The translations under genes and the position numbers were made by a program. The notes under the pieces were generated by a model. That model was not told where the DNA came from. It did no database searches and worked only from the letters and a program-made list of their open reading frames with translations. From IMG/VR virus record IMGVR_UViG_2660238499_000008: a stretch of 14,754 nt of DNA; one strand, 5' to 3'. Of the stretch, positions 1-14,754 are shown in pieces; the stretch's first letter is position 1, and the number at the start of each line of letters is the position of its first letter. The DNA is from a virus (Duplodnaviria > Heunggongvirae > Uroviricota > Caudoviricetes).

Positions 1-1260
1 ATGCCAAAACTCACAGACATGCAGATCCGCGCATGGATAAAGGCCGGGGAGCGATTCGAGGGACGCTCTGACGGTAACGGGCTTTATCTTTCATACCGCG
101 AAAACTACCAGACCCCCGTCTGGCGATTCCGCTATAAATTCGCAGGGAAACCCCGCGCCATGCTGATTGGCTCATATGCCGAGCTATCACTATCAAAGGC
201 CAGAGAGACAGCCAAAGAGCTATCGGCTCGCGTTGCGCTGGGCTATGACGTTGCAGGAGAGAAGCAGAAGCGCAAAACCGAAGCACTGGCGAAGATGGAA
301 GCAGAGAAGAACGCTATGCGCGTTTCAGAGCTTGCCGCTGAATACTTTGAGCGTCAGATCCTCCCGCGCTGGAAGCACCCCGATATACTCCGCCGCCGTA
401 TCGACAAAGATATAAACCCATGCATTGGCAGCATGAAGGTAGAGGGCGTGAAACCGCGCCATATCGATGACATGCTGAAAGGTATTGTTGACCGTGGAGC
501 GCCGACCATAGCAACGGACGTGCTGAGATGGACGCGCCGCATATTCGACTACGGAATCAAACGGCACGCGCTGGAGATTAACCCATGTTCAGCCTTTGAG
601 GTGGCAGACGCCGGAGGGAAAGAAGTTGCCCGTGACCGCTGGTTAACCCGCGATGAGTTAATCCAGCTATTCAAAGCCATGCGCACGGCTAAGGGATTCA
701 GTCGCCAGAACGAAATCACGTTCAAATTACTGTTAGCGTTATGCGTCCGCAAAATGGAGTTATGCGCCGCCCGCTGGGAGGAGTTCGATTTTGATAAAGC
801 CGTATGGCATTTACCAGAGGAACGCAGCAAAAACGGCGACGCTATAGACATTCCATTAGCACCGCCAGCCGTCGAATGGCTGAGAGAGCTTAAAACGTTC
901 TCATGCAACAGCGCATGGGTACTGCCAGCCAGAAAGATGCAAAACCGCATGATCCCCCATATTCAGGAAAGCACCCTGCCCGTAGCACTGGCTAAGGTTC
1001 GCGCCGAAATGCCGGACGTGCCGAATTTCACGATTCACGACTTCCGACGCACGGCCCGCACCCATTTAGCAGCGCTGGGCGTTGATCCGGTAGTGGCTGA
1101 AAGATGCCTTAATCACAAAATTAAAGGCGTGGAGGGTATCTATAACCGTCACCAGTATTTTGATGAGCGTAAAGCGGCGCTGGCGCAGTGGTGTGATTTG
1201 CTGGTGGCACTGGAGAGCGGTGAAGATTACAACGTCACGCCGATAAAAAAGGCTAATTAA
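1..1260 (+). CDS. int: Tyrosine recombinase / integrase, P4 / CP4-57 (IntA) type
   Basis: 419-aa ORF. N-terminal arm-binding-like region (MPKLTDMQIRAWIK...GLYLSYREN...WRFRYKFAGK) typical of P4-family integrases. C-terminal catalytic region with H-x-x-R (FTIHDFRRTART) and candidate catalytic Tyr near the C-terminus (GIYNRHQYF). ORF begins exactly at window position 1, so promoter and attL are not visible. Confidence 0.93.
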   Translation: MPKLTDMQIRAWIKAGERFEGRSDGNGLYLSYRENYQTPVWRFRYKFAGKPRAMLIGSYAELSLSKARETAKELSARVALGYDVAGEKQKRKTEALAKMEAEKNAMRVSELAAEYFERQILPRWKHPDILRRRIDKDINPCIGSMKVEGVKPRHIDDMLKGIVDRGAPTIATDVLRWTRRIFDYGIKRHALEINPCSAFEVADAGGKEVARDRWLTRDELIQLFKAMRTAKGFSRQNEITFKLLLALCVRKMELCAARWEEFDFDKAVWHLPEERSKNGDAIDIPLAPPAVEWLRELKTFSCNSAWVLPARKMQNRMIPHIQESTLPVALAKVRAEMPDVPNFTIHDFRRTARTHLAALGVDPVVAERCLNHKIKGVEGIYNRHQYFDERKAALAQWCDLLVALESGEDYNVTPIKKAN

Positions 1261-1354
1261 CCGAACAGATTGAGCCTAGCCCGACGGGGCGAAAAGTGGG
1301 AAGCCTTACCGCCTGGCTCAATTCTTTTTAAGGCAAAGCGTAGAAGGTGACGCA

Positions 1355-2188
1355 ATGGCATTACCAAAAAGGAAATATTACTCGCTTGAAAAAGCAGCGA
1401 AAGAATTGGAATGTGATGTTGATGATTTGCTTCATTATGCATCTTTAGGAATTCTACAGATTTGTGTCTACATAGAAATAAATGAAGATGAGGGCCTCTC
1501 CGAATGCTTCATAGACTCTGATGTTGACGATGAATTACTCGAATCTCTTAGCAGTGATGTTGATCCAACTCCATTAAGATGGGCTACTGAGTTAAATTAT
1601 ATAGTAGAAGATGCAGGGTTTTTCCTTTTGTCGAGAAGAGATGATGATTGTGATTCAAAGATAAACTCAGCAGGGGGATTTTTTGCGCTCAATCATACTG
1701 AGCTATCTACTCCAAAATTTGAAAAAGATAGAAAAATCGAAGTTTTTTCTCTTGGGCACTTGAGAGAGCATTATCACATTGTCAGTGGCAATCAATTTGG
1801 CGGAAGCACGCCAGGATATGAGCCGGGAAGCATTCTTTTTTACAAGCCACGAAAATTCGAAATTCATGACTTTTGCATCACATTGCCTGAGCTAGAGTTA
1901 TTGAAAAAAGGCGGAGAAAATCTACTTCATTCTGCATTTGGTTATAATCACCGTTCCTCTGAACTAATCGGTAGGAAAAAAGAAAATTTCTCAAAGCATA
2001 AAGCTTCCCTAATCAGATCTCTCACTGAACTGGCTTTTGTAAAGGATGGCGGGATTTCAAAACTTTCAATGGAATCAATAGCGGATCAATTACAACGAAA
2101 ATTTATGGACGCAGAGATAGATTATGATGATTTAAGTCCTTCAAATTTAAGGAATTGGTTAGGTACTGGCAGAAAGGATAAAATTTAA
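1355..2188 (+). CDS. Hypothetical protein, AT-rich cargo gene; possible N-terminal HTH, acidic linker, C-terminal domain of unknown function
   Basis: 277-aa ORF with purine-rich RBS (gaaggtga) about 6 nt before the ATG. Visibly AT-rich and different in codon usage from flanking GC-rich genes. N-terminus (YSLEKAAKELECDVDDLLHYASLGILQ) loosely resembles excisionase/AlpA-type HTH (inference only). Long acidic stretch (DSDVDDELLESLSSDVD, RRDDDCD). No recognisable catalytic motif. Confidence 0.65.
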   Translation: MALPKRKYYSLEKAAKELECDVDDLLHYASLGILQICVYIEINEDEGLSECFIDSDVDDELLESLSSDVDPTPLRWATELNYIVEDAGFFLLSRRDDDCDSKINSAGGFFALNHTELSTPKFEKDRKIEVFSLGHLREHYHIVSGNQFGGSTPGYEPGSILFYKPRKFEIHDFCITLPELELLKKGGENLLHSAFGYNHRSSELIGRKKENFSKHKASLIRSLTELAFVKDGGISKLSMESIADQLQRKFMDAEIDYDDLSPSNLRNWLGTGRKDKI

Positions 2189-2203
2189 AACTTTCAAAGT
2201 TTT
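2187..2203. promoter_or_regulatory. 17-bp perfect palindrome AAAACTTTCAAAGTTTT upstream of alpA (operator-like dyad or weak hairpin)
   Basis: Perfect dyad symmetry read directly from the sequence; overlaps the stop codon of the preceding gene and lies about 85 bp upstream of the alpA start. A partial repeat (cgaaagttt) follows at about 2213-2221. Function not demonstrable from sequence. Confidence 0.3.
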
Positions 2204-2287
2204 AAATGCTTATCGAAAGTTTGCTTTGGTTTATGCCTCAATTTTTTAATCATACCCGTAACAACGCAGAAAGGAGTTACGGGAAGC

Positions 2288-2491
2288 ATGAGCACAGAAA
2301 CTATTCCTACCAGCGGCTATATCCGCCGCTTTCGTTTAGCGAGCCATCTTGGCGTCCACGTCACAACAGTAGATCGCTGGGTCCGCGAGAAACGCATTCC
2401 AGCACCCGTCAAATTGGGTGAGAAGATTACCGCCTTTGATGCGGTAGAGATTAACAACTGGCTGGCAGAGCGTCGGGGAAAGGTGGCGTAA
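2288..2491 (+). CDS. alpA: AlpA-family phage transcriptional regulator (HTH)
   Basis: 67-aa ORF with good RBS (aaaggag). Sequence RFRLASHLGVHVTTVDRWVREKRIPAPVKLGEKITAFDAVEINNWLAERRG matches the AlpA / prophage CP4-57 regulator pattern (HTH followed by PxPVKLG and W-acidic C-terminus). Confidence 0.88.
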   Translation: MSTETIPTSGYIRRFRLASHLGVHVTTVDRWVREKRIPAPVKLGEKITAFDAVEINNWLAERRGKVA

Positions 2492-2928
2492 TGGGAAAGA
2501 AAAACCGCCCCGGACAGCAGGCGGCTAACAACATAGATATTCGCGGATCTGATGTTACGCCGACCACCAGCCCGGTACAAGTACCTAAGCGAACCCCAAA
2601 GAAACACCGCGCCCGCGTCTATATGCTGCGTACTGGCGTAGAGGGATGGACAGAAAACGACATTCTGCGCTACTGCCGTCTTTCATCCGGGCGTAATTAT
2701 GCGTCTGAACTGGAGCGCCAGCTTGATATTCAGCTTGAGCGTATAGACGAAAAGAACCCCGACGGGATCGGGTCACATTTACGCTATCGCTTTACCGGGC
2801 GCGGTGACGTTCTAAAAGTTATTCAGCTTGTGAACCACAACGCCACCGCTGGTGGCTATAACGGGCTTTCTAAGCAGGATATCGCGGACATTCTCAATCT
2901 ATACCCGGACAATCTCACCGCCGGCTAA
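2491..2928 (+). CDS. Hypothetical protein with basic, low-complexity N-terminus
   Basis: 145-aa ORF whose ATG overlaps the alpA stop (TAATG), suggesting translational coupling. No family recognised. Confidence 0.6.
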   Translation: MGKKNRPGQQAANNIDIRGSDVTPTTSPVQVPKRTPKKHRARVYMLRTGVEGWTENDILRYCRLSSGRNYASELERQLDIQLERIDEKNPDGIGSHLRYRFTGRGDVLKVIQLVNHNATAGGYNGLSKQDIADILNLYPDNLTAG

Positions 2929-2940
2929 CGGAGACTGAAA

Positions 2941-3774
2941 ATGAACATCGAAAAAAGCAGATTAATTTCTGAGGCCGCCCCTCATCTGAACGCCTATCAG
3001 GGCACAATTAACGGTAATGAATTTGCCGCAATTGTCCCGGTTATTCCTGGTCATATCGGTGGGCGTGAAACCAATATTGTTAGCGCAAAAGCGTTACACA
3101 AAGCGTTGGGCGTGGGAAAAGACTTCTCTACATGGATCACTGATCGCATCTCTGAATATGACTTCACCATTGGGCACGATTACTCAGTCCATAAAACAAT
3201 TTCCCCAAATCTGGGGAAAAGCCCGAATGGCGCGGCTTACAGCAAGATTAAACAGTCTGGCAGACCCGGCAAAGACTATCTGTTAAGTGTCGGAATGGCG
3301 AAAGAACTGGCAATGATCGAACGCACCGAACAGGGCCGCGCTATCCGCCGTTATTTCATCCAGTGCGAGGAAGAATTACAGCGTAGCGTGCCTGAAATCG
3401 CCGCCCGCTATCGTCGCCAGCTAAAAGCCCGTATCAGTGCCGCCAACCTGTTTAAACCGATGTGCGTAGCGCTGGAAAGCGCCCGCGCAGAACAGGGTAA
3501 ACAGACGCAGGCTCGCCACTACAGCAACGAGAGCAACATGATCGCCCGTATCGTGCTGGGTGGCATGACGGCGAAGCAGTGGGCGCAGGCAAATGGCATT
3601 ACTGGCGAACCACGGGACAGCATGAACGCAGCACAGCTTGAACACCTCGCCTATCTCGAAAGCACCAATATCACGTTAATTGATATGGGTATGGGATATG
3701 ACCTGCGTAAAGCCGAGCTAATCCGCCTCTCTCAGCGCTGGTTAGCTAAACATCTGGGGGCTAATCATGCTTAA
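2941..3774 (+). CDS. Phage antirepressor, AntA-like N-terminal domain plus KilA-C (ANT) C-terminal domain
   Basis: 277-aa ORF, RBS ggag 6-7 nt upstream. N-terminal segment (NIVSAKALHKALGVGKDFSTWITDRISEYDFTIGHDY) resembles the AntA domain. Central segment (GRPGKDYLLSVGMAKELAMIERTEQGRAIRRYFIQCEEEL) resembles the KilA-C antirepressor domain. Confidence 0.82.
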   Translation: MNIEKSRLISEAAPHLNAYQGTINGNEFAAIVPVIPGHIGGRETNIVSAKALHKALGVGKDFSTWITDRISEYDFTIGHDYSVHKTISPNLGKSPNGAAYSKIKQSGRPGKDYLLSVGMAKELAMIERTEQGRAIRRYFIQCEEELQRSVPEIAARYRRQLKARISAANLFKPMCVALESARAEQGKQTQARHYSNESNMIARIVLGGMTAKQWAQANGITGEPRDSMNAAQLEHLAYLESTNITLIDMGMGYDLRKAELIRLSQRWLAKHLGANHA

Positions 3775-3945
3775 TGCCGCCATCCAGAATAAAGCCTTTC
3801 CCCTGGCTGGCCTGATGTATGCAAATGTTAACGTCTGGAGCAAAGCAGCCCGCCGCCAGATTGCGACAAATAGCGACGTTTGGAACCTGTCAAAACCTGA
3901 CATTTGCCACCGCCAGATCTTTACAAATCTTGGTGTTTTCGGGAC

Positions 3946-4176
3946 AAGTACGCACGCGCATGAATGCGAAGCTGGCATAACAGTGCCAGCTAATGCCATC
4001 TCCTCATTTTCTCGTCGTGGTGACGAGGAGAGTTTCGAGACCAGTACGCGCACGAAGATTTATTGGGGGTCACTACGCGAGGAAGATTTTCCCATCATCA
4101 CTACACGAGGCGGGAAGATTTTTCTGACATCACCACTAGATGCAGGGAATTTATGCAACAGTACGCGCACGCGCGA
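3946..4176. repeat. Repeat-rich, probably non-coding region: three direct copies of GTACGCRCRCG and three degenerate tandem ~30-bp units (GAAGATTT...TCACTACRCGAGG)
   Basis: GTACGC(A/G)C(A/G)CG at 3948-3959, 4044-4054 and 4161-4175. Tandem ~30-bp units at about 4052-4082, 4081-4110 and 4113-4142. A GC-stem/UUCG-loop hairpin at about 4388-4407 followed by a U-rich tract. The 311-aa ORF the track draws across this region has low-complexity, non-protein-like composition. Confidence 0.5.
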
Positions 4177-4510
4177 AGGTGAGTTTCTGGAGTCCATAAA
4201 AAAGGGCTTGCCGACTATCGCCAACCCGGTTTATGGTTATAGCGCACCAGCAAAATCTGGTGTCGGGATTGGAACCCCGAACACACTAAGGGCGACACAG
4301 ACGCCGAAAGCGTCTTTTTTTGTGTCCATTCACTACGCACATCAAATCAGCGGACTTACCCGTACTGTATCAATGGTGGCGTTAGTGGGGCTACGTTCGC
4401 GTAGGCCGGTTTCCTTTGTGTCCGGTAGTTCCAACCCTGCTAACGTCACCGCCACTATTAAGATTGGAACCTTATGCGGTGACTCCTTAAACACAAAGGA
4501 GGCTGCCATA

Positions 4511-4702
4511 ATGGCTACTACCCCTACCCAAAAACCGCAATTTATCTGGATTATCGCAGCAGTTCGCCGCGATATGCCGACAATTACCGCCAAAATTCAC
4601 CATATCGCCGCAGAGACTGAGCAGGAAGCCCGCCGCATTCTGGCGCGGGATCACGTTTGCTTTTTTGCCGGACGTATTCGCACAGGGGGCGCACATGCTT
4701 AA
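4511..4702 (+). CDS. Small protein, possibly host cell-division-inhibitor Icd-like
   Basis: 63-aa reading frame (MATTPTQKPQFIWIIAAVRRD...ARRILARDHVCFFAGRI) with its own strong RBS (aggagg 8 nt before ATG at 4511), embedded at the 3' end of the long track ORF 3767-4702. The Icd-like assignment is from recalled similarity to small proteins of P4-like prophages and is not verified. Confidence 0.45.
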   Translation: MATTPTQKPQFIWIIAAVRRDMPTITAKIHHIAAETEQEARRILARDHVCFFAGRIRTGGAHA

Positions 4703-4874
4703 TTACTTCCGTGTTGCAGGATGCGCCACCGCCCGGAGCGGCGAATTAGTCGAGTTCGTTTATATCGTTGACGCCCGCAGCGCGATCAGCGCCAAAGCTG
4801 AGGCGCTAAATCAGGCCAGAAATGAACGCCTTTCCCACATCCAGATTACCCGCATTCGTGAGGTGGCGGCATGA
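4695..4874 (+). CDS. Hypothetical small protein
   Basis: 59 aa from ATG at 4695 (track shows an upstream TTG at 4665). The ATG overlaps the stop of the previous gene (ATGCTTAA); G-rich RBS upstream. Start choice uncertain. Confidence 0.4.
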   Translation: MLNYFRVAGCATARSGELVEFVYIVDARSAISAKAEALNQARNERLSHIQITRIREVAA

Positions 4875-5185
4875 GCATGTATAACGATTTAGTGTCCTGC
4901 AACTTTGATGGTTGTACACCTGATGATCTGAACGGAATTGAGAGCTGCGCCAGTGATGCCGTGGATGATTTAATGCTGGGCGTAAGTGCCATTGGTAGCC
5001 TCATGTTCTGGGCGGCTGGTAGCGATGGCTACCCGGAGGAAAGCGCTAAGGCTGATATGTACAGATTAGGCGCAATGCTGGGACATATCGGAGAAGTTGC
5101 GCGGGCGCTGAACGATAGCGCTGCAAACGCCGCATTCTTGCGCTCAATCAGTGAAAAAGAAGCCAAAGGGAGGGCGGGCAAATGA
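4871..5185 (+). CDS. Hypothetical protein
   Basis: 104-aa ORF; ATGA start/stop overlap with the upstream gene; same strand and operon context. Confidence 0.55.
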   Translation: MSMYNDLVSCNFDGCTPDDLNGIESCASDAVDDLMLGVSAIGSLMFWAAGSDGYPEESAKADMYRLGAMLGHIGEVARALNDSAANAAFLRSISEKEAKGRAGK

Positions 5186-5445
5186 ACAGAACTACCATCT
5201 ATCGCCACCCGGCAGAGCTGGAAGCCGAAGCGATGCTATCTCGCAAAGAAGCATACCCGGATGATTTTACGCTGGCAGACCGAACAGCAGAACGCATGAC
5301 CCGCGCCCGCAATGGGCTGGCTCACGTTATGACCGATTTATTACCACTCCTCGAAGTTGAGCAAGCAGCCATCGCGTATTGCTGGCTGAGTAAAGTCCTG
5401 ACGATTGTCGATATAGCCAGAATTGATGCGGAGGGCAGCGCATGA
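5182..5445 (+). CDS. Hypothetical protein
   Basis: 87-aa ORF; ATGA start/stop overlap with the upstream gene. Confidence 0.55.
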   Translation: MNRTTIYRHPAELEAEAMLSRKEAYPDDFTLADRTAERMTRARNGLAHVMTDLLPLLEVEQAAIAYCWLSKVLTIVDIARIDAEGSA

Positions 5446-6068
5446 GCAACGCACCGACCATTAAATCTGGAAATGCCGACTTATTACACGCAGAAGCCAC
5501 ACCGCACGGCGTAAACATCATGACCCGCAATGATGCCGGGATGTATGAGCATGTTGCTCTTATCAGCTACGAGAGCGCCGTGAACGGCCTTGACGCCGGA
5601 GAGTACGACGATAAGCCAGATATCGGATACGCCATTCATTTTGCCGTTGCTGATGGCGGGGCGCGTGGCTGGTTCGACTTCACCGCGCAGCATAACGTCA
5701 CTATGTGGCGCTGGCTGATTGCTGCGACGTTCATTTCTGAGATGAAGCGCGAAAACGGCACAACCACGGTAACTGAGTCTGACGGCACTTCATCGCAGGT
5801 GGCGATTTACTCCAATGGCACGGCGGGGATTGTGGTTTACCCGTTCGCGGAACGTCTGGCGATGGCTAACAACATGGAGGGCGCAATGATTGAGCGATAC
5901 GGCGTCGAACAGGGTACGGAAAAAGCCATTGTTTTTTATCAGGCCATGATCGACACGGAGCGCGGCGAGTTGACCCCGTTCGGGCGTGAAACGCTTGCTG
6001 AACTTCACAACAGCTTTATAGCTGAACTGGATGAAAACGGCTGGCCTGAAATGCCGCTGCCGCACTGA
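5442..6068 (+). CDS. Hypothetical protein
   Basis: 208-aa ORF; ATGA overlap with the upstream gene; no motif recognised. Confidence 0.6.
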   Translation: MSNAPTIKSGNADLLHAEATPHGVNIMTRNDAGMYEHVALISYESAVNGLDAGEYDDKPDIGYAIHFAVADGGARGWFDFTAQHNVTMWRWLIAATFISEMKRENGTTTVTESDGTSSQVAIYSNGTAGIVVYPFAERLAMANNMEGAMIERYGVEQGTEKAIVFYQAMIDTERGELTPFGRETLAELHNSFIAELDENGWPEMPLPH

Positions 6069-6077
6069 GGGGGCGAC

Positions 6078-6419
6078 ATGATTACTAAAAATTTCCGACT
6101 GAATGCGCTGGCGAATAAGTATGCGTCGGCACTGTATAACCACATTACCTCCACCAGCGGCGGTGACTATTTCATGGTTGATGCGGACGGCCTCGCCGTC
6201 CGTGTGGAAATCGTCAATGGAGTAAAAGGCTTTCGCAGCCTGATCGATAGCTACACACTGGCAGCCATGAAAGTGTCCTACCCGCAGTGGGAAACCGTGG
6301 GGATCGCGCTTCTTGAGCGTTGCGTCACTAAGGACGGATTAACTGACGTCGGGCGCGAGATATGGCAAAGCATGGTTAAAGACATGGGCGCGACCGTGGC
6401 AGGGGGCAACCATGCGTAA
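6078..6419 (+). CDS. Hypothetical protein
   Basis: 113-aa ORF with strong RBS (gaggggg); its stop overlaps the primase start (ATGCGTAA). Confidence 0.6.
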   Translation: MITKNFRLNALANKYASALYNHITSTSGGDYFMVDADGLAVRVEIVNGVKGFRSLIDSYTLAAMKVSYPQWETVGIALLERCVTKDGLTDVGREIWQSMVKDMGATVAGGNHA

Positions 6420-9177
6420 TATCGATCTTATCCGCGAAGTGACCAGTGCCGCCGCCGGGCGCTGGCCTTATGTGCTGGCTGGATTGTCTATCGACGTGCC
6501 TGATTCATCGCGCCGCCATTCTCCATGCCCTGCATGTGGTGGAAAAGACCGTTTCAGATTCGACGACAACGGGCGCGGTAGCTTTATCTGCAATCAGTGT
6601 GGCGCTGGTGACGGTTTAGACCTGATTAAGAAGGTGAACAACTGCGACACTACGGAGGCGGCACAGCTTGCCGCTGATGTGCTGGGTATTGATTACCGGG
6701 CAGCGCAAACCGACCCGGTGGCAGCGAGCCATAGAAGAGAGCAACTGGAAGCTGACCGCCAGCAGCGTGAGCAGGAGCGCCAGAAACAGGCAGCAGAGGA
6801 TGCAGAGCAGCGAAGGGCTACGTTTGCCCGTCTGTATGCCGGAATGCGCCAGAGTGCCACACAGGGAGAATCTGATTACCTGCAATCAAAAGGGCTGACC
6901 GGGTTTAACTATCCGGTTATGCCGGATGGTTCGTTATTGCTGGAGCTGGTGGACGAATCCGGCGCAGTGGCAGCAGCGCAAACCATTACACCGCAGGGAG
7001 AGAAGCGACTCCTGACAGGTTCAGCAAAGCGCGGGGCATATCACGCCGTAAACGCACCAGAACAGCCGCAGAGCGTATTAATTGCCGAGGGGCTGGCGAC
7101 GGCCCTGTCCGTTCACCTGATGCGCCCGGACGCGCTTACAGTGGCGGCAATTGACGCCGGGAACCTGATCCACGTTGCCGGAGTAATGCGCCGGAAACAC
7201 CCGCAGTCGCAAATTATCATTGCCGCAGATAACGACCACCAGCAGGACGAACAGGCGAACACGGGCAAAGATGCCGCAGAGAAAGCCGCCTTATCCGTGG
7301 CTGGCTGGGTGGCGCTGCCGCCGACAGACTACAAAGCCGACTGGGACGACTACCGCCAGCAAAACGGGCTGGAAGTCGCTACGGCTGCGTTTAACGATTC
7401 GATGTACCAGATTCAGGGGGAAGCCGTGAAACCGCGATTGCAAGCCATTGAGGGCGGTAAAACTGACCATCCAGAGAAAGACCCACTAAAACCCCACATT
7501 GAGAGCCGAAAAGATGGCGTTTTCTGGGTAACGCCGAAGGTGGACAAGGAAAGCGGGGAGATCATCAACGCTGAAAGCTGGTTATGTTCACCGCTGGAGG
7601 TTATCGGCACGGGACGCGACGACAAAGATCAGTATCTTATTATCTCATGGCTGGCATTTGGTGCAGGCATACCGACAACAGCGGCTATCCCGCTGGCTGA
7701 TATTGGCGAGCGTGAAGGCTGGCGCACCCTGAAAGCTGGTGGCGTCAACGTCACAACGAAAAACAGCCTACGGGCGATTCTTGCCGACTGGTTACAGCGA
7801 AGCGGCTCGCGTGAATTGTGGCGCGTTGCTCATGCTACAGGCTGGCAGTGCGGGGCATACATCATGCCGGACGGGGAAATCATCGGCACACCTGAGCGGC
7901 CTGTTTTGTTCAGCGGGCGCAGTTCAGCCGCTGCCGGGTATACCGTAGCAGGAACGTCGGAAAGCTGGCGTAACAGTGTTGCGCGGCTGGCATACGGTAA
8001 TTACGCGATGATGACAGGCATCGCCGCAGCACTGGCAGCGCCATTAATCGGGGTGGCAGATCGTGACGGATTCGGGATTCATTTTTATGAGCAATCGAGC
8101 GCCGGGAAAACAACCACGCAGAACGTGGCGAGCAGTCTATACGGCAACCCTGATGCCTTGCGCCTGACGTGGTACGGGACGGCGCTGGGGCTGATAAACG
8201 AGGCCGCCGCCCACAATGACGGGCTGATGCCACTGGATGAAGTCGGACAGGGCGCTGACCCGATAAGCGTTTCTCAGTCTGCCTATGCCCTGTTTAACGG
8301 CGTGGGGAAATTGCAGGGAGCAAAGGAAGGAGGCAACCGGGATCTGAAACGCTGGCGCACCGTGGCAATCAGCACCGGGGAAGTGGACTTAGAAACCTTC
8401 ATCGCCACCGCCGGACGCAAGACCAAAGCCGGGCAACTGGTGCGCTTGCTGAATATCCCGTTAAGTAAGGCGGTGCGCTTTCATGAACACCAGACAGGGA
8501 AAGAACACGCCGACGCGCTGAAAGATGCTTATCAGCACCATCATGGCGCTGCCGGGAGGGAGTGGATCAGATGGCTTTCAGACCACCAGCAACAGGCGAT
8601 TGATGTCGTTCGTGAGTGTGAAGCCCGCTGGCGCAGTCTAATCCCTGCCGACTATGGGGAACAGGTTCACCGTGTAGGGGCAAGATTTGCCATTCTGGAG
8701 GCCGCTTTACTGATGGGTGGCGTGGTTACTGGCTGGGATGCTCAAACGTGCCGGGATGCGATACAGCACGCCTATAACGCATGGCTAAAAGAGTTCGGCA
8801 CGGGGAACAAAGAGCACCAGCAGATCATCGAGCAGGCGGAGGCATTTTTAAATGCCTATGGCCTGAGTCGATTCGCGCCGCTGCCTTACGACCCCGCCAG
8901 CCTGCCGATTCATAATCTGGCTGGATACAGGCAGCGCGGAAATCATGACGATTCACCGATAACGTTTTACACGTTCCCCGACACTTTCGATAAGGATATT
9001 GCTAAGGGGTTTAACAGGCAGCAGGTGGCCCGCGTCCTGAAAGAATCGGGGATGCTTACCCCTTCAGCAGACGGAAAAAAATTTCAGAGGAAAAGCCCGC
9101 GCATTCAGGGGAGGCAGATTAACGTTTACGTTTTGCAATTCCTGCCGGATGGGGAGGAAAGCCAGCCAGGGCAATAA
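6412..9177 (+). CDS. Replicative primase-helicase (P4 alpha-like): N-terminal zinc ribbon, TOPRIM domain, C-terminal Walker-A/B NTPase
   Basis: 921-aa ORF. Zinc-ribbon CPACGG...FICNQCG near the N-terminus. TOPRIM-like acidic motifs (IAEGLATA; IIAADNDHQQDE). Walker A-like SSAGKTT and Walker B-like LMPLDEV in the C-terminal half. Immediately followed by an iteron array. Confidence 0.9.
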   Translation: MRNIDLIREVTSAAAGRWPYVLAGLSIDVPDSSRRHSPCPACGGKDRFRFDDNGRGSFICNQCGAGDGLDLIKKVNNCDTTEAAQLAADVLGIDYRAAQTDPVAASHRREQLEADRQQREQERQKQAAEDAEQRRATFARLYAGMRQSATQGESDYLQSKGLTGFNYPVMPDGSLLLELVDESGAVAAAQTITPQGEKRLLTGSAKRGAYHAVNAPEQPQSVLIAEGLATALSVHLMRPDALTVAAIDAGNLIHVAGVMRRKHPQSQIIIAADNDHQQDEQANTGKDAAEKAALSVAGWVALPPTDYKADWDDYRQQNGLEVATAAFNDSMYQIQGEAVKPRLQAIEGGKTDHPEKDPLKPHIESRKDGVFWVTPKVDKESGEIINAESWLCSPLEVIGTGRDDKDQYLIISWLAFGAGIPTTAAIPLADIGEREGWRTLKAGGVNVTTKNSLRAILADWLQRSGSRELWRVAHATGWQCGAYIMPDGEIIGTPERPVLFSGRSSAAAGYTVAGTSESWRNSVARLAYGNYAMMTGIAAALAAPLIGVADRDGFGIHFYEQSSAGKTTTQNVASSLYGNPDALRLTWYGTALGLINEAAAHNDGLMPLDEVGQGADPISVSQSAYALFNGVGKLQGAKEGGNRDLKRWRTVAISTGEVDLETFIATAGRKTKAGQLVRLLNIPLSKAVRFHEHQTGKEHADALKDAYQHHHGAAGREWIRWLSDHQQQAIDVVRECEARWRSLIPADYGEQVHRVGARFAILEAALLMGGVVTGWDAQTCRDAIQHAYNAWLKEFGTGNKEHQQIIEQAEAFLNAYGLSRFAPLPYDPASLPIHNLAGYRQRGNHDDSPITFYTFPDTFDKDIAKGFNRQQVARVLKESGMLTPSADGKKFQRKSPRIQGRQINVYVLQFLPDGEESQPGQ

Positions 9178-9566: not shown

Positions 9567-10028
9567 ATGACAGCACAGATATCAGCCTACGGGCGTTTAG
9601 TCGCAGACCCCCAGACCCGCACCACAACGAACGGTGCAAGCATGGCAATGGGACGGTTAGCGGTGGCACTGCCCTGCCATGCAGCAGAGGGCGGAGAGGT
9701 TACTTTCTGGCTGGGCGTGGTGGCATTCGGCAAACAGGCCGACGCACTGGCAGGACACGTTAAAGGCGATTTAGTCAGTGTTGCCGGAGCGATGCAGATC
9801 AATCAGTGGACGGGCAAGGATGGCGGTACACAGCAAGGTTATCAGGTAGTGGCCGACAGCGTGATCAGCGCCAGAACGGTACGCCCCGGCGGGAAGCGGG
9901 CCGAATCAGTCAAAGCAAGCGGAGCCAGCAGGGGCCACACAACACAATCCGCGCCGGGATGGGAGTTATATAATACCCCTGATGATTTTGACCAACGCCC
10001 ACCATTCGACGATGAAACGCCATTCTGA
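9567..10028 (+). CDS. ssb: Single-stranded DNA-binding protein (SSB), OB-fold with acidic C-terminal tail
   Basis: 153-aa ORF. N-terminal half aligns by eye with bacterial SSB OB-fold (GRLVADPQTRTTTNG; WLGVVAFGKQADALAGHVKGDLVSVAGAMQINQWT). Gly/Ser-rich linker and C-terminal ...FDDETPF resembling the SSB D-D-D-I-P-F tail. Confidence 0.88.
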   Translation: MTAQISAYGRLVADPQTRTTTNGASMAMGRLAVALPCHAAEGGEVTFWLGVVAFGKQADALAGHVKGDLVSVAGAMQINQWTGKDGGTQQGYQVVADSVISARTVRPGGKRAESVKASGASRGHTTQSAPGWELYNTPDDFDQRPPFDDETPF

Positions 10029-10038
10029 GAGGGAAGAT

Positions 10039-10680
10039 ATGAGTACACAACCCACCATTATCGAGTTAGGCAGCTATCGCTGGCCCAGACATCTCGCAAT
10101 ACACGAAGCAGGTCATGCGATAGCCGCATGGTTTTTCGGCATACAGGAGGTAGAAATTGCGTTATCGGGTAATAACCGAGTGGCAAAAACCTACCTTAGC
10201 GGCGATGTTGATGAGTGTGGAGCCGTCGCGGTATGGCACGCCAACTATCCACGGAATGTGGCTGAGGTTAAGTCTTACACCCTCTCGAACGATGACGCCA
10301 GATTACGTCTGATAGACCAGGTATGCCGGGATATGGTTATCTCTCTGGCTGGTATCGTCGCGCAATCACGCTATACGGGGGATGATATTAACGCACTGAT
10401 GGAAACGTCCGGGAAAGCAGACATGAAAAATGTTCGTGATTTATCAGAGGTATACCGGGTGGCTGGTGGAGAGGATGCTGATATACAGAGAATATCACTT
10501 TCCCGTGCTGAGGCGCTGATTGCCCTGAAATGGTGGGATGTTATCGCGCTGGCGAAAATACTGGAGAACCGTAACCATATGCCTGCCAGAAACTTCCAGC
10601 GCATTATGGGTGATATTGACAAGCCTGTACCAAAGCCTATGACGCTGGCTGAACTGGATGAATTGGTGGGTGAAGAATGA
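10039..10680 (+). CDS. Putative zinc metallopeptidase (HExxH motif; ImmA/IrrE-like or FtsH-like HEAGH)
   Basis: 213-aa ORF from ATG at 10039 (RBS gagggaag). Motif LAIHEAGHAIAAW encoded at about 10093-10131 (HEAGH at 10102-10116). Family not resolved and third metal ligand not identified. Confidence 0.55.
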   Translation: MSTQPTIIELGSYRWPRHLAIHEAGHAIAAWFFGIQEVEIALSGNNRVAKTYLSGDVDECGAVAVWHANYPRNVAEVKSYTLSNDDARLRLIDQVCRDMVISLAGIVAQSRYTGDDINALMETSGKADMKNVRDLSEVYRVAGGEDADIQRISLSRAEALIALKWWDVIALAKILENRNHMPARNFQRIMGDIDKPVPKPMTLAELDELVGEE

Positions 10681-11027
10681 AGCCATACATTCTGGCAGCC
10701 GTCCTGATCTCATCGGCACCGGCACTATCTGCTATCCATTGTGGGGGCTTTACTATACAGCCAGACCGTTATCGGACAACGATTAACGGCGATGTGGTTC
10801 ATATTGTTGATGCGCAATTTTACGGCGCACCGCGAGACTTTAGCCAGGCCGCCATAAAGTTATTGCCGGATGCCATTACCACTACCGACAGGCAATACCG
10901 ACTGGAGACGCAGGGAAGCAATGCCTTGCTTGAGTTGATGACCAGAGAAAACCCGCCACGTGTGCTTAATCGTGAGCGCTGCGATGCCGGGCTAACAGGC
11001 TTTTACTGGTACTCGTCTGTGCCGTGA
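10677..11027 (+). CDS. Small exported protein with N-terminal signal peptide
   Basis: 116-aa ORF; start overlaps the stop of the HExxH gene (ATGA). N-terminus MKPYILAAVLISSAPALSA has a positive n-region, hydrophobic core and AxA-like cleavage site. Confidence 0.6.
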   Translation: MKPYILAAVLISSAPALSAIHCGGFTIQPDRYRTTINGDVVHIVDAQFYGAPRDFSQAAIKLLPDAITTTDRQYRLETQGSNALLELMTRENPPRVLNRERCDAGLTGFYWYSSVP

Positions 11028-11096
11028 GGTTCGCACCGAACGCAGGCTAAAATTCTAGACTGTTCTTGACAGATTTTAAACCCAAGTAGCGCTAAA

Positions 11097-11195
11097 CCCG
11101 CGCCAGCAGAGGGCTGGAAACCAGAGCGTGATTTAGGTCGTCCAGAATATTCTGGTTCGCGCCACTGGTACGCAGTACGCAGTCAGGTACGCAGC
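11097..11195 (+). promoter_or_regulatory. Regulatory module copy A: CTGGAAACCAG dyad, perfect 14-bp palindrome CCAGAATATTCTGG, and three GTACGCAG heptamer repeats
   Basis: CTGGAAACCAG at 11114-11124; CCAGAATATTCTGG at 11142-11155; (G)TACGCAG at 11168-11175, 11176-11182 and 11187-11194. About 50 bp upstream of the TerS-like gene. About 85 bp is recognisably duplicated at 11692-11776. Confidence 0.5.
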
Positions 11196-11241
11196 AAAAC
11201 CGCGCATTCAGTTAGGTTTTTTGCGCACAGTGAGCCGTTAA

Positions 11242-11619
11242 ATGAAAAAAAATAGCCAACAATCAAGATCCGGATGGGGTGGCAAGCGGAAAGGCGCAGG
11301 CGCACCGTTGGGCAATACTAATGCCGTCAAACATGGCGAACGCAGTAGGCGGGCATTCTTCCCGTTTGAGGGAGAAGATGCGCTTTCTCCGCTGGTGCGA
11401 AATCGTGCAAGAAACCTCATGATGGCTGAGAGATACGGGCTATTACTGGCGACTAATCCGACGCCGGGAACAGAAGAATGGCGCGAGATGACATTGATTA
11501 ACGGACTCATGGGGCTACATGCCGACAGAATCGCACGGCTTGAGCTGAGTTTAGCGAGATCCGTTTCAATGCAAGCAAGGCGGGATCTGCGAAGGGTTAA
11601 AAAAAACGGCGCATGTTAG
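11242..11619 (+). CDS. Small basic protein with GxPxGNxNAxKHG motif; possible terminase small-subunit-like / packaging-redirecting protein
   Basis: 125-aa ORF. N-terminus GGKRKGAGAPLGNTNAVKHGERS resembles a motif I associate with phage small-terminase-family proteins (recalled, not verified). No large terminase or capsid genes in the element. Confidence 0.5.
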   Translation: MKKNSQQSRSGWGGKRKGAGAPLGNTNAVKHGERSRRAFFPFEGEDALSPLVRNRARNLMMAERYGLLLATNPTPGTEEWREMTLINGLMGLHADRIARLELSLARSVSMQARRDLRRVKKNGAC

Positions 11620-11691
11620 CAATCCGTATAGTCACCGATGTTGAAATACTGGACTGTACTGGACAGACTCAAAGCCCATATGAAGAGAGAA

Positions 11692-11866
11692 CCGCGCCAG
11701 TAGCGGGCTGGAAGCCATATTCGATTTAGGCAGTCCAAAATATTCTGGCTCGCGCCATTGGTTCGCAGTGCGCAAAATAGTGCGCAATTTACAGTAAAAT
11801 ACGCATATTATTTCGCATTCATTTTTGCGCACCGTTCGCAGTTAATGCGCAGTAATTCGCAGGAGG
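11692..11866 (+). promoter_or_regulatory. Regulatory module copy B: diverged duplicate of module A, extended by an array of at least 8 TNCGCA(G) repeats and ending in a strong RBS
   Basis: 11692-11776 aligns by eye with 11097-11181 (roughly three-quarters identity), with the palindrome degenerated to CCAAAATATTCTGG at 11735-11748. Between 11761 and 11860 are repeated ttcgcag / tgcgcaa / ttgcgca / atgcgcag / attcgcag elements. AGGAGG at 11861-11866. Confidence 0.5.
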
Positions 11867-11873
11867 CCCGCCA

Positions 11874-12485
11874 GTGAGAGACAGAACGCGCAGCTATATC
11901 ACCGACCTGCCCCGTATAGGGTTGCCATTCCTTGCGAACATGCGTAGCAGGCTGGCGGACGCCGAACCGGGGACGCAGCTTTATACCCAGACCGAAAGCG
12001 GAACGTTGTATACCTTCCGGCAAGCCGACAGCTACGCCATGACAATCAACGGCGTTACACGGGCAATCAGAACCACGACCACACAAGCCGGGTATGGTGT
12101 GCGGGAATGGTACGTCTGTCCCCACTGCATAAAGCGGGTAGCGAAGCTGTATATCGGCAAAAAAGATATTGGCTGCCGGGGATGCTGGAAACTCCACTAT
12201 AAAAGCCAGAGCGCCGACAGACTGGACAGGATGCGAATGAAGATACGCCAGCAGCGATGCGCGATATGGGGAAGCAATGACCTTGCCAATAATCTGTTTA
12301 ATGACATTCGCATGTTCCCAAAACCAAAGGGGATGCGCTGGGCTACGTTTGACAGGAAGCGGGCAGAGTTATCAGTTATGGAGATGGCTTACTGGCAGGC
12401 ATTCAGTCCGGTAGTAGATAGAATCAGGGGCATGGTTGAGCGTAAGACGGGGAAAGCAGCCAGAGGCATTGGCCTGACTTTGTAA
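11874..12485 (+). CDS. Hypothetical protein with C4 zinc-ribbon (CPHC...CRGC)
   Basis: 203-aa ORF starting at GTG 11874, 7 nt after a perfect AGGAGG (alternative ATG at 11939). CxxC pairs CPHC and CRGC separated by 16 residues. Preceded by regulatory module B. A 6-bp stem hairpin follows the stop (about 12489-12505) but has no U-tract. Confidence 0.65.
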   Translation: MRDRTRSYITDLPRIGLPFLANMRSRLADAEPGTQLYTQTESGTLYTFRQADSYAMTINGVTRAIRTTTTQAGYGVREWYVCPHCIKRVAKLYIGKKDIGCRGCWKLHYKSQSADRLDRMRMKIRQQRCAIWGSNDLANNLFNDIRMFPKPKGMRWATFDRKRAELSVMEMAYWQAFSPVVDRIRGMVERKTGKAARGIGLTL

Positions 12486-12716
12486 AAGCAAAACGCCCGC
12501 ACGGGGCGTCAAGGAACGGGATAGACTTCTGCGACAATTTGCATTCGCCGCCAATATAGCAAGCCGTCCACATCAAGCAATAAACTATCACCGGGAGGGG
12601 GAGGCCAAATCTCTGCAACCCTGAGCCTTAAGGACTGCCCGCCCCATCGTTTTTTTATACCCGCGAAAAATGAAATTTAATCCGGGCGTGTTTCATCCTT
12701 CCAGAGGGTATGACGT

Positions 12717-12902
12717 ATGACACCACGCGAAATAGCCTTATTGACCATCGCCAAACTTGAGCACGGAGGCCACCAGCTTACACTGGCAGATCAACGGGAG
12801 ATAGAACGCTCAGTTAATGCCGATATAGCCCGGCGCGACAGGTTCCGCGAAATGATGCGAGCACCTGCCTACCAGTGGAAGAAGCCAGCGCCGCGCAGGT
12901 AG
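12717..12902 (+). CDS. Hypothetical small basic protein
   Basis: 61-aa ORF (MTPREIALLTIAKLEHGG...); weak RBS; preceded by a T7 run at about 12646-12652. No family recognised. Confidence 0.45.
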   Translation: MTPREIALLTIAKLEHGGHQLTLADQREIERSVNADIARRDRFREMMRAPAYQWKKPAPRR

Positions 12903-13134
12903 ATATGGGATTATTCCACATGTAACTATACGAGCAATCAGCCCATTAGCTGCCTGCGTGGGAAAGGCACCACCCCGGCGGAAAACTCAGGCGGCTTGCA
13001 TGGTTACAATGAATTGCTATTACAGGCCAGAGAGTCTGATAATCCTGAGCAGGCCGAGATCCACAATTTCCTGATGCTGGATATTGAACGCCGGGTTTAC
13101 GACCTGAGCCGCATCAACGGCAGATTGCAGGCTA

Positions 13135-13494
13135 TTAACTGACCCGCATGTATTCACCTGATATTGCGTTATCAGCGCCGCCATTATCGCGCACAACGGC
13201 ACATTGACCGGGTAAACCGTAGCGAACGACCGTTGCGTTAGTTTTACCGCCACGCTTTACCTGACGAGATTCATACACTGTCACACGTTCCAGCAGCCCC
13301 CCGGCAACCATGCTTTCAAGAGTTCGCCGGGTGGATTCGAGCGGGTGGCGCTTATCGAACGACACCATGCCATGAAGAAGGTAGGCCACGCCCGACACAT
13401 CGAACGGCGGCGCACCAATCTCACCTGTCACCCATTCGAGGTTATCCGGCTCAAAGTAGCTGAGTATCTCTTTTTTGCGGCTGGTCATTCTCAT
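13135..13494 (-). CDS. Hypothetical protein, convergent to the rest of the element; possible winged-helix-like segment
   Basis: 119-aa ORF, the only convincing minus-strand gene. RBS aaggaa upstream of the ATG. Segment HPLESTRRTLESMVAGGLLERV is reminiscent of a recognition helix/wing, which is speculative. Confidence 0.5.
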   Translation of the reverse strand: MRMTSRKKEILSYFEPDNLEWVTGEIGAPPFDVSGVAYLLHGMVSFDKRHPLESTRRTLESMVAGGLLERVTVYESRQVKRGGKTNATVVRYGLPGQCAVVRDNGGADNAISGEYMRVS

Positions 13495-13742
13495 GGCTGG
13501 CTGATTCCTTATTGTGGGATAGCGGTATCATACAATAAGGCGCAAAAGATAAGAGGCCAGAACAGCAAGCATGAGAGCATAAAATGAGCAGCCAAAGACA
13601 GCACCTCAAAATACCGTGTACACAAGGGTGTACCTACTTAGAAAACGCATTACAAGGAATCCAGTAACCACGCGGCCTAGAGACTCCTACTCAATAAACA
13701 GATTCAGACTCGTAACGCCAATTCTTACTTTTCAGCCTTCAC

Positions 13743-13884: not shown

Positions 13885-13929
13885 TTACAGATTTACTTTC
13901 TTTGCAATCGATATCACATGGAGTGGGCA

Positions 13930-14754
13930 ATGAACGAACATCATCAACCTTTTGAAGAAATACGGCATTATGGCACTGAAGGGCAAGAATTTTGGTCAGC
14001 GAGAGAATTGGCACCGTTACTGGATTATCGGGACTGGCGCAATTTTCAAAAGGTACTTGCCCGCGCGACTCAAGCGTGCGAAGCCAGCAATCAAGCTGCA
14101 TCTGACCATTTCGTTGAAACCACCAAAATGGTTGTATTAGGTTCAGGGGCTCAACGAGAACTTGAAGATGTTCATCTCTCCCGCTATGCCTGTTACCTGG
14201 TAGTACAAAACGGCGACCCTGCGAAACCGGTTATTGCGGCAGGACAAACTTATTTTGCTATCCAGACCCGACGGCAGGAGCTGGCTGACGATGAAGCTTT
14301 CAGGCAACTTCGTGAAGACGAAAAGCGTCTTTTTCTGAGAAATGAATTGAAAGAACATAACAAACAATTAGTTGAGGCAGCGCAGCAAGCTGGGGTAGCG
14401 ACAGCTATCGATTTCGCCATATTTCAGAATCATGGTTACCGGGGGCTGTATGGTGGATTAGATCAGAAAGCCATCCATCAGCGGAAGGGGCTGAAAAAGA
14501 GTCAGAAGATCCTGGATCATATGGGTTCAACAGAACTGGCGGCTAATCTCTTTCGAGCTACCCAAACAGAAGAAAAACTTAAGCGGGATGGCGTGAATTC
14601 AAAACAGCAAGCTAACACCACACACTTTGACGTAGGTCGCAAGGTGAGGCAAACCATTCAGGAACTTGGCGGAACCATGCCTGAGGAGTTGCCGACCCCG
14701 CAGGTCAGCATTAAGCAGTTGGAAAACAGTGTAAAAATTACAGAGAAAAAATAG
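13930..14754 (+). CDS. dinD: DNA-damage-inducible protein D (DinD), core chromosomal SOS gene
   Basis: 274-aa ORF from ATG 13930 (RBS ggag 6 nt upstream; the track ORF starts 4 codons earlier at 13918). N-terminus MNEHHQPFEEIRHYGTEGQEFWSARELAPLLDYRDWRNF matches my recollection of Escherichia coli DinD. Preceded by a consensus LexA box. Stop codon is the last 3 nt of the window. Confidence 0.88.
   Translation: MNEHHQPFEEIRHYGTEGQEFWSARELAPLLDYRDWRNFQKVLARATQACEASNQAASDHFVETTKMVVLGSGAQRELEDVHLSRYACYLVVQNGDPAKPVIAAGQTYFAIQTRRQELADDEAFRQLREDEKRLFLRNELKEHNKQLVEAAQQAGVATAIDFAIFQNHGYRGLYGGLDQKAIHQRKGLKKSQKILDHMGSTELAANLFRATQTEEKLKRDGVNSKQQANTTHFDVGRKVRQTIQELGGTMPEELPTPQVSIKQLENSVKITEKK

Follow-up and report, generated by a model that had tools for sequence, protein, structure and literature searches.

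We analyzed a 14,754-nucleotide (nt) stretch of DNA (IMG/VR record IMGVR_UViG_2660238499_000008, assigned to the Caudoviricetes), hereafter the window, which carries an EcCIMP1-like phage-inducible chromosomal island (PICI) of the Gram-negative type. The gene of interest is antA (2941..3774, + strand), whose product is named as an antirepressor. With moderate confidence, we interpret antA instead as a Bro-zone gene for a dimeric DNA-binding regulator with a DdrC fold. The regulator would be made from an AlpA operon, act on helper and/or island DNA, and be translationally coupled to an eta-like read-through open reading frame (ORF). A preliminary description of the same DNA had called the product a satellite-encoded AntA/KilA-C antirepressor and had suggested that it may actively derepress a resident helper prophage. 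The antA gene and its placement have been annotated and published before and are already known. New here are the definition of the C-terminal module of the protein, the shuffling of this module behind four kinds of heads, and a specific structural link, seen in a predicted model, to DdrC of Deinococcus radiodurans.

The antA gene is an ATG-initiated ORF encoding 277 amino acids (aa), at exactly the position first described, with a Shine-Dalgarno sequence (GGAG) 7 nt 5′ of the ATG. The ratio of non-synonymous to synonymous substitution rates (dN/dS) is 0.25-0.46 against three homologues. Thus, antA is a real coding gene under purifying selection. Many positions are invariant in an alignment of 21 antA homologues from several enterobacterial genera. 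RefSeq names the same ORF an "antA/AntB antirepressor family protein," and the best PHROG match of the protein is PHROG 5817, "anti-repressor Ant" (E-value 4e-37). The protein belongs to the Pfam AntA/AntB family (PF08346), which matches residues 47-129 with an E-value of 2.1e-21 (76.7 bits, cut-off 27). The AntA part of the AntA/KilA-C label therefore stands, but the KilA-C part does not. The C-terminal half (about residues 130-277) matches no Pfam family even at an E-value of ≤10. An hhalign of the C-terminal family profile resulted in probabilities of just 0.2% against P1 KilA and 4.9% against P1 Ant1, two proteins in which Pfam does score the ANT/KilAC domain (E-values 2e-32 and 1e-30, respectively). 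In P1 Ant1, Pfam detects ANT and no AntA domain. AntA is the sole Pfam family on the antA protein, and neither P22_AR_N nor P22_AR_C was found. Judged by its domains, "antirepressor" is a name that has been carried over with AntA.

The C-terminal half is a module found behind several different heads. Residues 125-277 were used for an exhaustive HMMER search, which gathered 299 clusters (50% identity) that share the module at an E-value of ≤0.001. It sits in the C-terminal half of matches longer than ~180 aa, and the shorter matches are fragments. Among 98 full-length representatives and the window protein, the heads are Rha (35), AntA (33), KilA-N (19), and Bro-N (3). Thus, the C-terminal module is a conserved partner of interchangeable DNA-binding heads, and such head shuffling, as read from domain matches, is typical of the "Bro network." The domain carries the motif NE..MI.RIVLG..TAK..........PRD.M...QL. 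The one AntA-domain protein that has been dissected experimentally is AriS of Listeria, in which the AntA head does not work as an antirepressor but reduces how much its own phage is transcribed and replicated, while SOS is inhibited by the ANT tail (PMC9043618). AriS and the antA protein are alike in having an AntA Pfam head, and in both cases a variable head (AntA, Bro-N, Rha) is attached to a conserved C-terminal module. They differ in the module itself, which is ANT/KilAC in AriS and a different, unnamed domain in the antA protein. The likeness of phi24B Ant to P22 Ant lies in the C-terminal domain (PMC3064807).

An AlphaFold2 run with close homologues only gave a predicted local distance difference test score (pLDDT) of 56.5 and was unusable. 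The model that we used was built with 99 diverse relatives and has a mean pLDDT of 85.6, with values of 90-98 in the C-terminal domain. The predicted protein begins with an AntA head composed of an N-terminal β-hairpin and a winged helix (residues ~34-129; 3040..3327, +). This is followed by long helices (130-184) and a helical bundle (191-276). The C-terminal helical domain (residues ~150-277; 3388..3771, +) is similar to the C-terminal domain (CTD) of DdrC, not to ANT/KilAC. DdrC (PDB 7QVB, 7UDI, 8U0G) was the only significant structural match to the model. The match spans both domains, and the antA protein is thus predicted to have a DdrC-like fold. In the model, the two proteins share the β-hairpin and winged helix, a long linker helix, the C-terminal helical bundle, and a CTD-clasp motif. 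DdrC was also the only PDB sequence drawn by two of the family profiles, at non-significant E-values of 0.28 and 0.87. The profile alignment sets the family motif NRIVLG...RD.LT..QL against DdrC residues 153-191. This segment spans the CTD "clasp," with R164 and K170, which contact DNA, and D174, a residue of the clasp (PMC11347143). DdrC forms a domain-swapped dimer, which binds to duplex DNA as well as to nicks and ends, and it is stated to be without homologues outside Deinococcus (PMC9303277; PMC11347143). The antA protein is basic throughout past its first 30 residues (isoelectric point, pI, 9.2-9.7 per segment). The structural evidence from the predicted model points to a dimeric DNA-binding protein. 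A search of the BFVD viral structure library resulted in just unnamed proteins or proteins that are "antirepressor" or KilA-N in name only, none of them characterized.

That antA is satellite-encoded, as first proposed, is supported by homology. The window contains an integrase gene (int), alpA, a Bro zone, and a primase gene in one orientation, and it shares genes with a validated PICI, EcCIMP1 of Escherichia coli MP1. EcCIMP1 has been found experimentally to be excised and transduced only with the helper phage Kapi1 (PMC11773190). The EcCIMP1 "antirepressor" (WP_001019374.1), which ranks with the best-conserved genes in elements of the EcCIMP1 type (PMC11773190), has 88% aa identity to antA over 277 aa. 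The other identities are 75% for hyp145, 83% for icd, 65% for orf208, 94% for orf113, and 79% for the primase. Two late-zone ORFs are 94-98% identical, and the shared genes as a whole range from 59 to 98%. The neighbors in EcCIMP1 are also the same, i.e., alpA, hyp145, and antA, then ash/Icd and the Toprim-DUF927 primase. EcCIMP1 differs in its integrase, its late zone, and its site (tRNA-Thr, versus the yicC-dinD region here), and in having antA and ash separated by a DUF4222 gene. Gram-negative PICIs and HE-PICIs have been divided into Integration, Bro, Replication, and Late zones. In the Bro zone, C4/isrK immunity RNAs are accompanied by proteins that swap domains (AntA, Bro-N, Rha, KilA-N, and Phage_ASH; PMC10111431). 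The window matches both the order of the four zones and the content of the Bro zone. The same study is descriptive, and the C-terminal module and the DdrC-like fold are not defined there (PMC10111431).

The genes around antA are closely packed. An alpA-type helix-turn-helix (HTH) regulator/excisionase (2288..2491, +; Pfam HTH_17 and Phage_AlpA) lies upstream and, by analogy with other PICIs, presumably serves as master activator of the antA-containing operon (for the role of AlpA in PICIs, see PMC11773190). The alpA stop codon overlaps (TAATG) the start of hyp145 (2491..2928, +), which encodes a basic protein of 145 aa (pI 9.6). We found no match to hyp145 in Pfam, PHROG, NCBIfam, or PADLOC, nor any structure or name for it, and all 673 of its homologues are named hypothetical. 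Of 23 related loci, 16 were found to have hyp145 directly 5′ of antA, and the gap here is 12 nt. Hyp145 is a conserved, uncharacterized partner gene of antA that is translationally coupled to alpA. At its other end, the antA stop overlaps by 8 nt (ATGCTTAA) the start of an eta-like ORF of 311 aa (3767..4702, +), annotated as "ash family"/Icd-like (Pfam Phage_ASH at residues 157-256, NCBIfam Icd-like at residues 259-306). This ORF runs in frame through the isrK and C4 RNAs, as eta does in P4. An automatic scan of positions 1200-5200 found no sigma-70-like promoters, where shuffled sequences led us to expect 4.5 ± 1.8. This fits an activator (AlpA)-dependent operon.

The preliminary description also placed antA directly upstream of a region rich in repeats and of an Icd-like gene, and saw in this an echo of P1 immI. 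The position is correct. The direct repeats (3937..4171, +) consist of three copies of TTTCG.GAC.AGTACGCGCACG and three ~30-nt units (GGAAGATTTT...CAC.AC) that begin GGAAGATTT. A CAGTACGCRCRCG repeat motif is found at the same place, between antA and isrK, in six related islands, and the repeats may be protein-binding sites. They are followed by a possible constitutive promoter from which the immunity transcript would start (TTGCCG, 18 nt, TATGGT; 4208..4237, +), which was recognized by eye and falls below the threshold of the automatic scan. Next are an isrK-type RNA (4244..4320, +; Rfam RF01394, 76 bits) with an intrinsic terminator at 4299-4315 and a subsequent T run, and a C4 antisense (immunity) RNA (4369..4456, +; Rfam RF01695, 81.3 bits). 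A short Icd-like ORF (4511..4702, +; ATG at 4511) completes the series, and the NCBIfam Icd-like match spans ~4541-4684. Its Shine-Dalgarno sequence (AAGGAGG, 4496-4502) overlaps the C4 target at 4491-4500, to which the loop of C4 (4412-4421) is complementary. Another part of C4 (4428-4437) shows complementarity to a site within isrK (4266-4275), and GATTGGAACC occurs again at 4462-4471. With C4, isrK, and a target over the ribosome-binding site of the downstream gene all present, the region from 4244 to 4702 is, by its predicted elements, a complete RNA immunity module of the P1/P4 type, comprising isrK with its terminator, C4, and the Icd-like ORF.

The echo of P1 immI thus holds for the C4-type RNA, the Icd-like ORF, and the C4 target over the icd ribosome-binding site, but not for gene order. 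In P1 (c4, icd, ant1/2) and the P1-like D6, the antirepressor is located 3′ of icd and is translationally dependent on it, while antA is located 5′ of isrK, C4, and icd. The order in Gifsy-1 is isrK, orf45, anrP, and here too the antirepressor is 3′ of the RNA and under its control (PMC4825925). We found no homology between antA and the D6 antirepressor 3′ of icd, an unrelated Rha-type protein. The only C4-complementary sites are at 3878-3887, 4266-4275, 4462-4471, and 4491-4500, and none is near the antA ribosome-binding site. Since antA lies 5′ of C4 and in the alpA operon, C4 cannot control antA in the P1 manner. The layout is that of the P4/Gram-negative-PICI "Bro zone" (PMC10111431), not of P1 immI.

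P4 is the closer model for the arrangement. By analogy, an activator-dependent operon (alpA … eta) would read into an internally promoted immunity transcript. P4 and the window have in common an alpA-like gene, an eta-like ORF containing an immunity RNA, small ORFs, and a primase, although P4 is without antA or hyp145 between orf88 and eta. The candidate promoter lies inside the eta-like ORF, as PLE lies inside eta in P4. A tblastn of P4 against the window resulted in matches only to int, the cI/eta-icd region, and the primase, and the P4 cI/eta ORF aligns to positions 4325-4678. Homologues of P4 epsilon, sid, delta, and psu were not found in the window with PHROG, Pfam, or tblastn. Thus, the element is not a canonical P4. 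Translation of eta in P4 is thought to override termination (PMC10111431). From the gene anatomy and this precedent, we infer that ribosomes translating antA are passed on to the eta-like ORF.

In the reading that we prefer, antA would be silent in the resident island, and its protein would be made only when the AlpA-dependent operon fires, either after helper induction or after entry into a new cell. The protein would dimerize via its C-terminal bundle, and the dimer would bind the DNA of the helper phage and/or the island. Binding would tune transcription and could dampen the genes of the helper or the genomes of superinfecting helpers, in the way that the AntA domain of AriS and CapR of the Vibrio PLE do. 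CapR belongs to the Bro network and represses the capsid operon of the helper (cited in PMC10111431). It is our favored functional model, i.e., a satellite Bro-network DNA binder that acts on helper transcription, although CapR is in a different domain family and we claim no homology. The antA protein would probably not sequester a CI-type repressor. Translation of antA would be coupled to the eta-like ORF that crosses isrK and C4, and, by P4 precedent, the coupling may help the activated operon to read past the terminator of the RNA immunity system as far as icd and the replication genes.

Several points weigh against a DNA-binding regulator. A DNA-binding fold is compatible with repressor binding as well, and the timing of antA expression is inferred from gene order. 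Differences in domain orientation keep the TM-scores to DdrC low (0.39-0.47), and the likeness rests on a predicted model together with a sequence signal that is non-significant. DdrC itself has an acidic winged helix and is no transcription factor. Thus, the fold does not dictate "regulator."

That antA encodes a true antirepressor is, in our judgment, unlikely. It would be a functional analog of P4 epsilon and would bind and switch off either a helper prophage's CI-type repressor or a repressor that acts on the island. The satellite would thereby trigger helper induction, e.g., after transduction into a lysogen. The family name and the matches to PHROG "anti-repressor Ant" are in its favor. 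The immunity and replication modules of the island resemble those of P4, but the window has no epsilon homologue, so the role of epsilon is vacant. Satellites that derepress their helpers are known from P4 epsilon (annotated) and from a mycobacterial satellite (PMC12822802), and P1 Ant1/2 are Bro-network proteins and real antirepressors. However, the antA protein has no ANT/KilAC or P22_AR domains, and the AntA domain that it does have is undetectable in P1 Ant1. The gene is also outside C4/isrK control, unlike the antirepressors of P1, D6, and Gifsy-1 (PMC4825925), and an automatic scan found neither a promoter of its own nor LexA-type control. The predicted fold, in turn, matches a DNA-binding protein. 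Deletion of the whole of EcCIMP1 left Kapi1 titers after induction and Kapi1 CI-lux unchanged (PMC11773190), which, at least for the pair of EcCIMP1 and Kapi1, speaks against the active or constitutive derepression of a resident helper that the preliminary description had proposed. An epsilon-like role when the satellite enters a lysogen would still be compatible with the deletion data.

A more far-reaching version of the structural link is doubtful. In it, the antA protein and its ~300-cluster family would be true homologues of DdrC, and DdrC would be a domesticated phage/satellite Bro-network protein. The satellite protein would then be a DdrC-type nick/end sensor or clamp on incoming or excised DNA, its own or that of a superinfecting helper, and would underlie the superinfection immunity of EcCIMP1-like elements. 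The nick-sensing residues of DdrC are R14 and R81. DdrC is encoded on the chromosome, takes part in the response to DNA damage, and has an acidic winged helix, whereas the antA protein is basic throughout and satellite-borne.

We consider it somewhat less probable still that antA simply encodes a DdrC-like nick/end-binding and compaction protein. As a dimer at breaks, ends, or cos/pac termini, such a protein would circularize, protect, or block DNA, either its own after excision or injection or that of a superinfecting helper. The structural match over the full length of the model and the conserved motif over the DNA-contacting clasp of DdrC (PMC11347143; PMC9303277) would be consistent with this role. 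Deletion of the whole of EcCIMP1 lowered the superinfection immunity of the lysogen, an effect that is unexplained and for which EcCIMP1 has no known defense system (PMC11773190); a DdrC-like protein could explain it. The C-terminal module also matches the PADLOC defense candidate PDC-S22, weakly (E-value 7.8e-9). However, a specific activity is not transferable from a likeness of fold, and the PDC-S22 link may just reflect residence on mobile islands. We rejected membership of antA in a defense system, as the weak PDC-S22 match was all that was found and a scan of the neighboring genes gave nothing.

A host-directed effector, which would target some process of the host while the satellite runs through its cycle, is improbable. 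Precedents for such proteins include the SOS-inhibiting C-terminal domain of AriS (PMC9043618), P1 KilA, which is annotated "can kill host," and the toxic Kil of P4 (PMC10111431), and antA is located near the gene for an Icd-like division inhibitor. However, the effector domains of the precedents (ANT/KilAC) are absent from the antA protein. Finally, it is very improbable that antA is mainly a translated spacer with a dispensable protein, delivering ribosomes to the eta-like ORF for antitermination as the 8-nt stop/start overlap and the coupling to eta in P4 (PMC10111431) might suggest, given the purifying selection (dN/dS 0.25-0.46), the many residues invariant across genera, the confident two-domain model, and the DUF4222 gene that separates antA from the ash ORF in some islands.

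The antA gene is common in E. coli, where 614 of 5426 complete genomes carry antA at a coverage of at least 80%. We also examined 23 loci with full-length homologues in representative genomes of other species (Enterobacterales, Orbaceae). An integrase and/or a P4-type primase is near antA in 22/23 of these loci, and the order is mostly int, antA, primase. Among phages, in a collection of 50,697 records, a full-length homologue was found in just one, Edwardsiella phage EPP-1 (67% identity). Thus, the family is predominantly satellite-borne. The EPP-1 homologue (in the region 4976-6729) is a moron in the lysis cassette, between the endolysin and Rz genes, and this context does not inform on the function of antA. 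It adjoins a divergent GNAT acetyltransferase and HTH pair resembling a toxin-antitoxin system. No LexA-type box was seen by eye 5′ of it, just a palindrome (TTCCTAAATTTAGGAA).

The remainder of the island is less directly related to antA. It begins with a tyrosine integrase (1..1260, +; Pfam Arm-DNA-bind_3, Phage_int_M, and Phage_integrase), followed by the int-alpA RNA motif RF02996 (1269..1334, +; 61.8 bits, with an Rfam gathering score of 35.8). Between this motif and alpA is an acidic ORF of 277 aa (1355-2188, +) that matched nothing in any library. In related islands this slot is filled by different genes, and it is a possible site for accessory or defense cargo. Downstream of the immunity module, small ORFs (4665-6419, +) precede the replication zone, which encodes a primase/helicase with zinc ribbon, Toprim, and DUF927 domains (6412..9177, +; Pfam, and PHROG 1139 with an E-value of 3e-176). 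A single-stranded DNA-binding protein (SSB) gene is located at 9567-10028 (+). The "late" ORFs (~9982-13500, +) are without annotation. One of them (232 aa, 9982-10680) contains a metalloprotease-like HEAGH (HExxH) motif and has no match in Pfam, PHROG, or PADLOC. With a protease, a satellite would have another means of removing a repressor. Two others (11242-11619 and 11874-12485) were considered as terminase- or Rpp-like and rejected, as they have no phage homologues and no Pfam or PHROG match. A packaging module was not recognizable in this island from searches of the late-zone ORFs for phage homologues and against Pfam and PHROG. In EcCIMP1 and in related islands at the yicC site (L085, 16551-18834; L087, 15315-17766), the late zone has a P22-like "DNA ejection protein" and DUF2824. 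The contrast between these P22-like genes and the late ORFs here, which are without phage homologues, suggests late-zone swapping between helpers. The island is flanked by chromosomal dinD (from 13918; 13918-14754, +), whose product has a Bro-N domain (Pfam, E-value 3e-11). The island thus adjoins a host protein that is a member of the same domain network. In many E. coli genomes, the yicC-dinD interval is where the island is located.

EcCIMP1-like PICIs are common, and their conserved "antirepressor" carries a label that suggests helper derepression, which the sequence does not support. As this label spreads, studies of the sensing and manipulation of helpers by Gram-negative PICIs could be misled. 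Whether the target of the antA protein is DNA or a repressor would show how such satellites control the helper. If the likeness to DdrC is real, these proteins would be the first relatives of DdrC outside Deinococcus.

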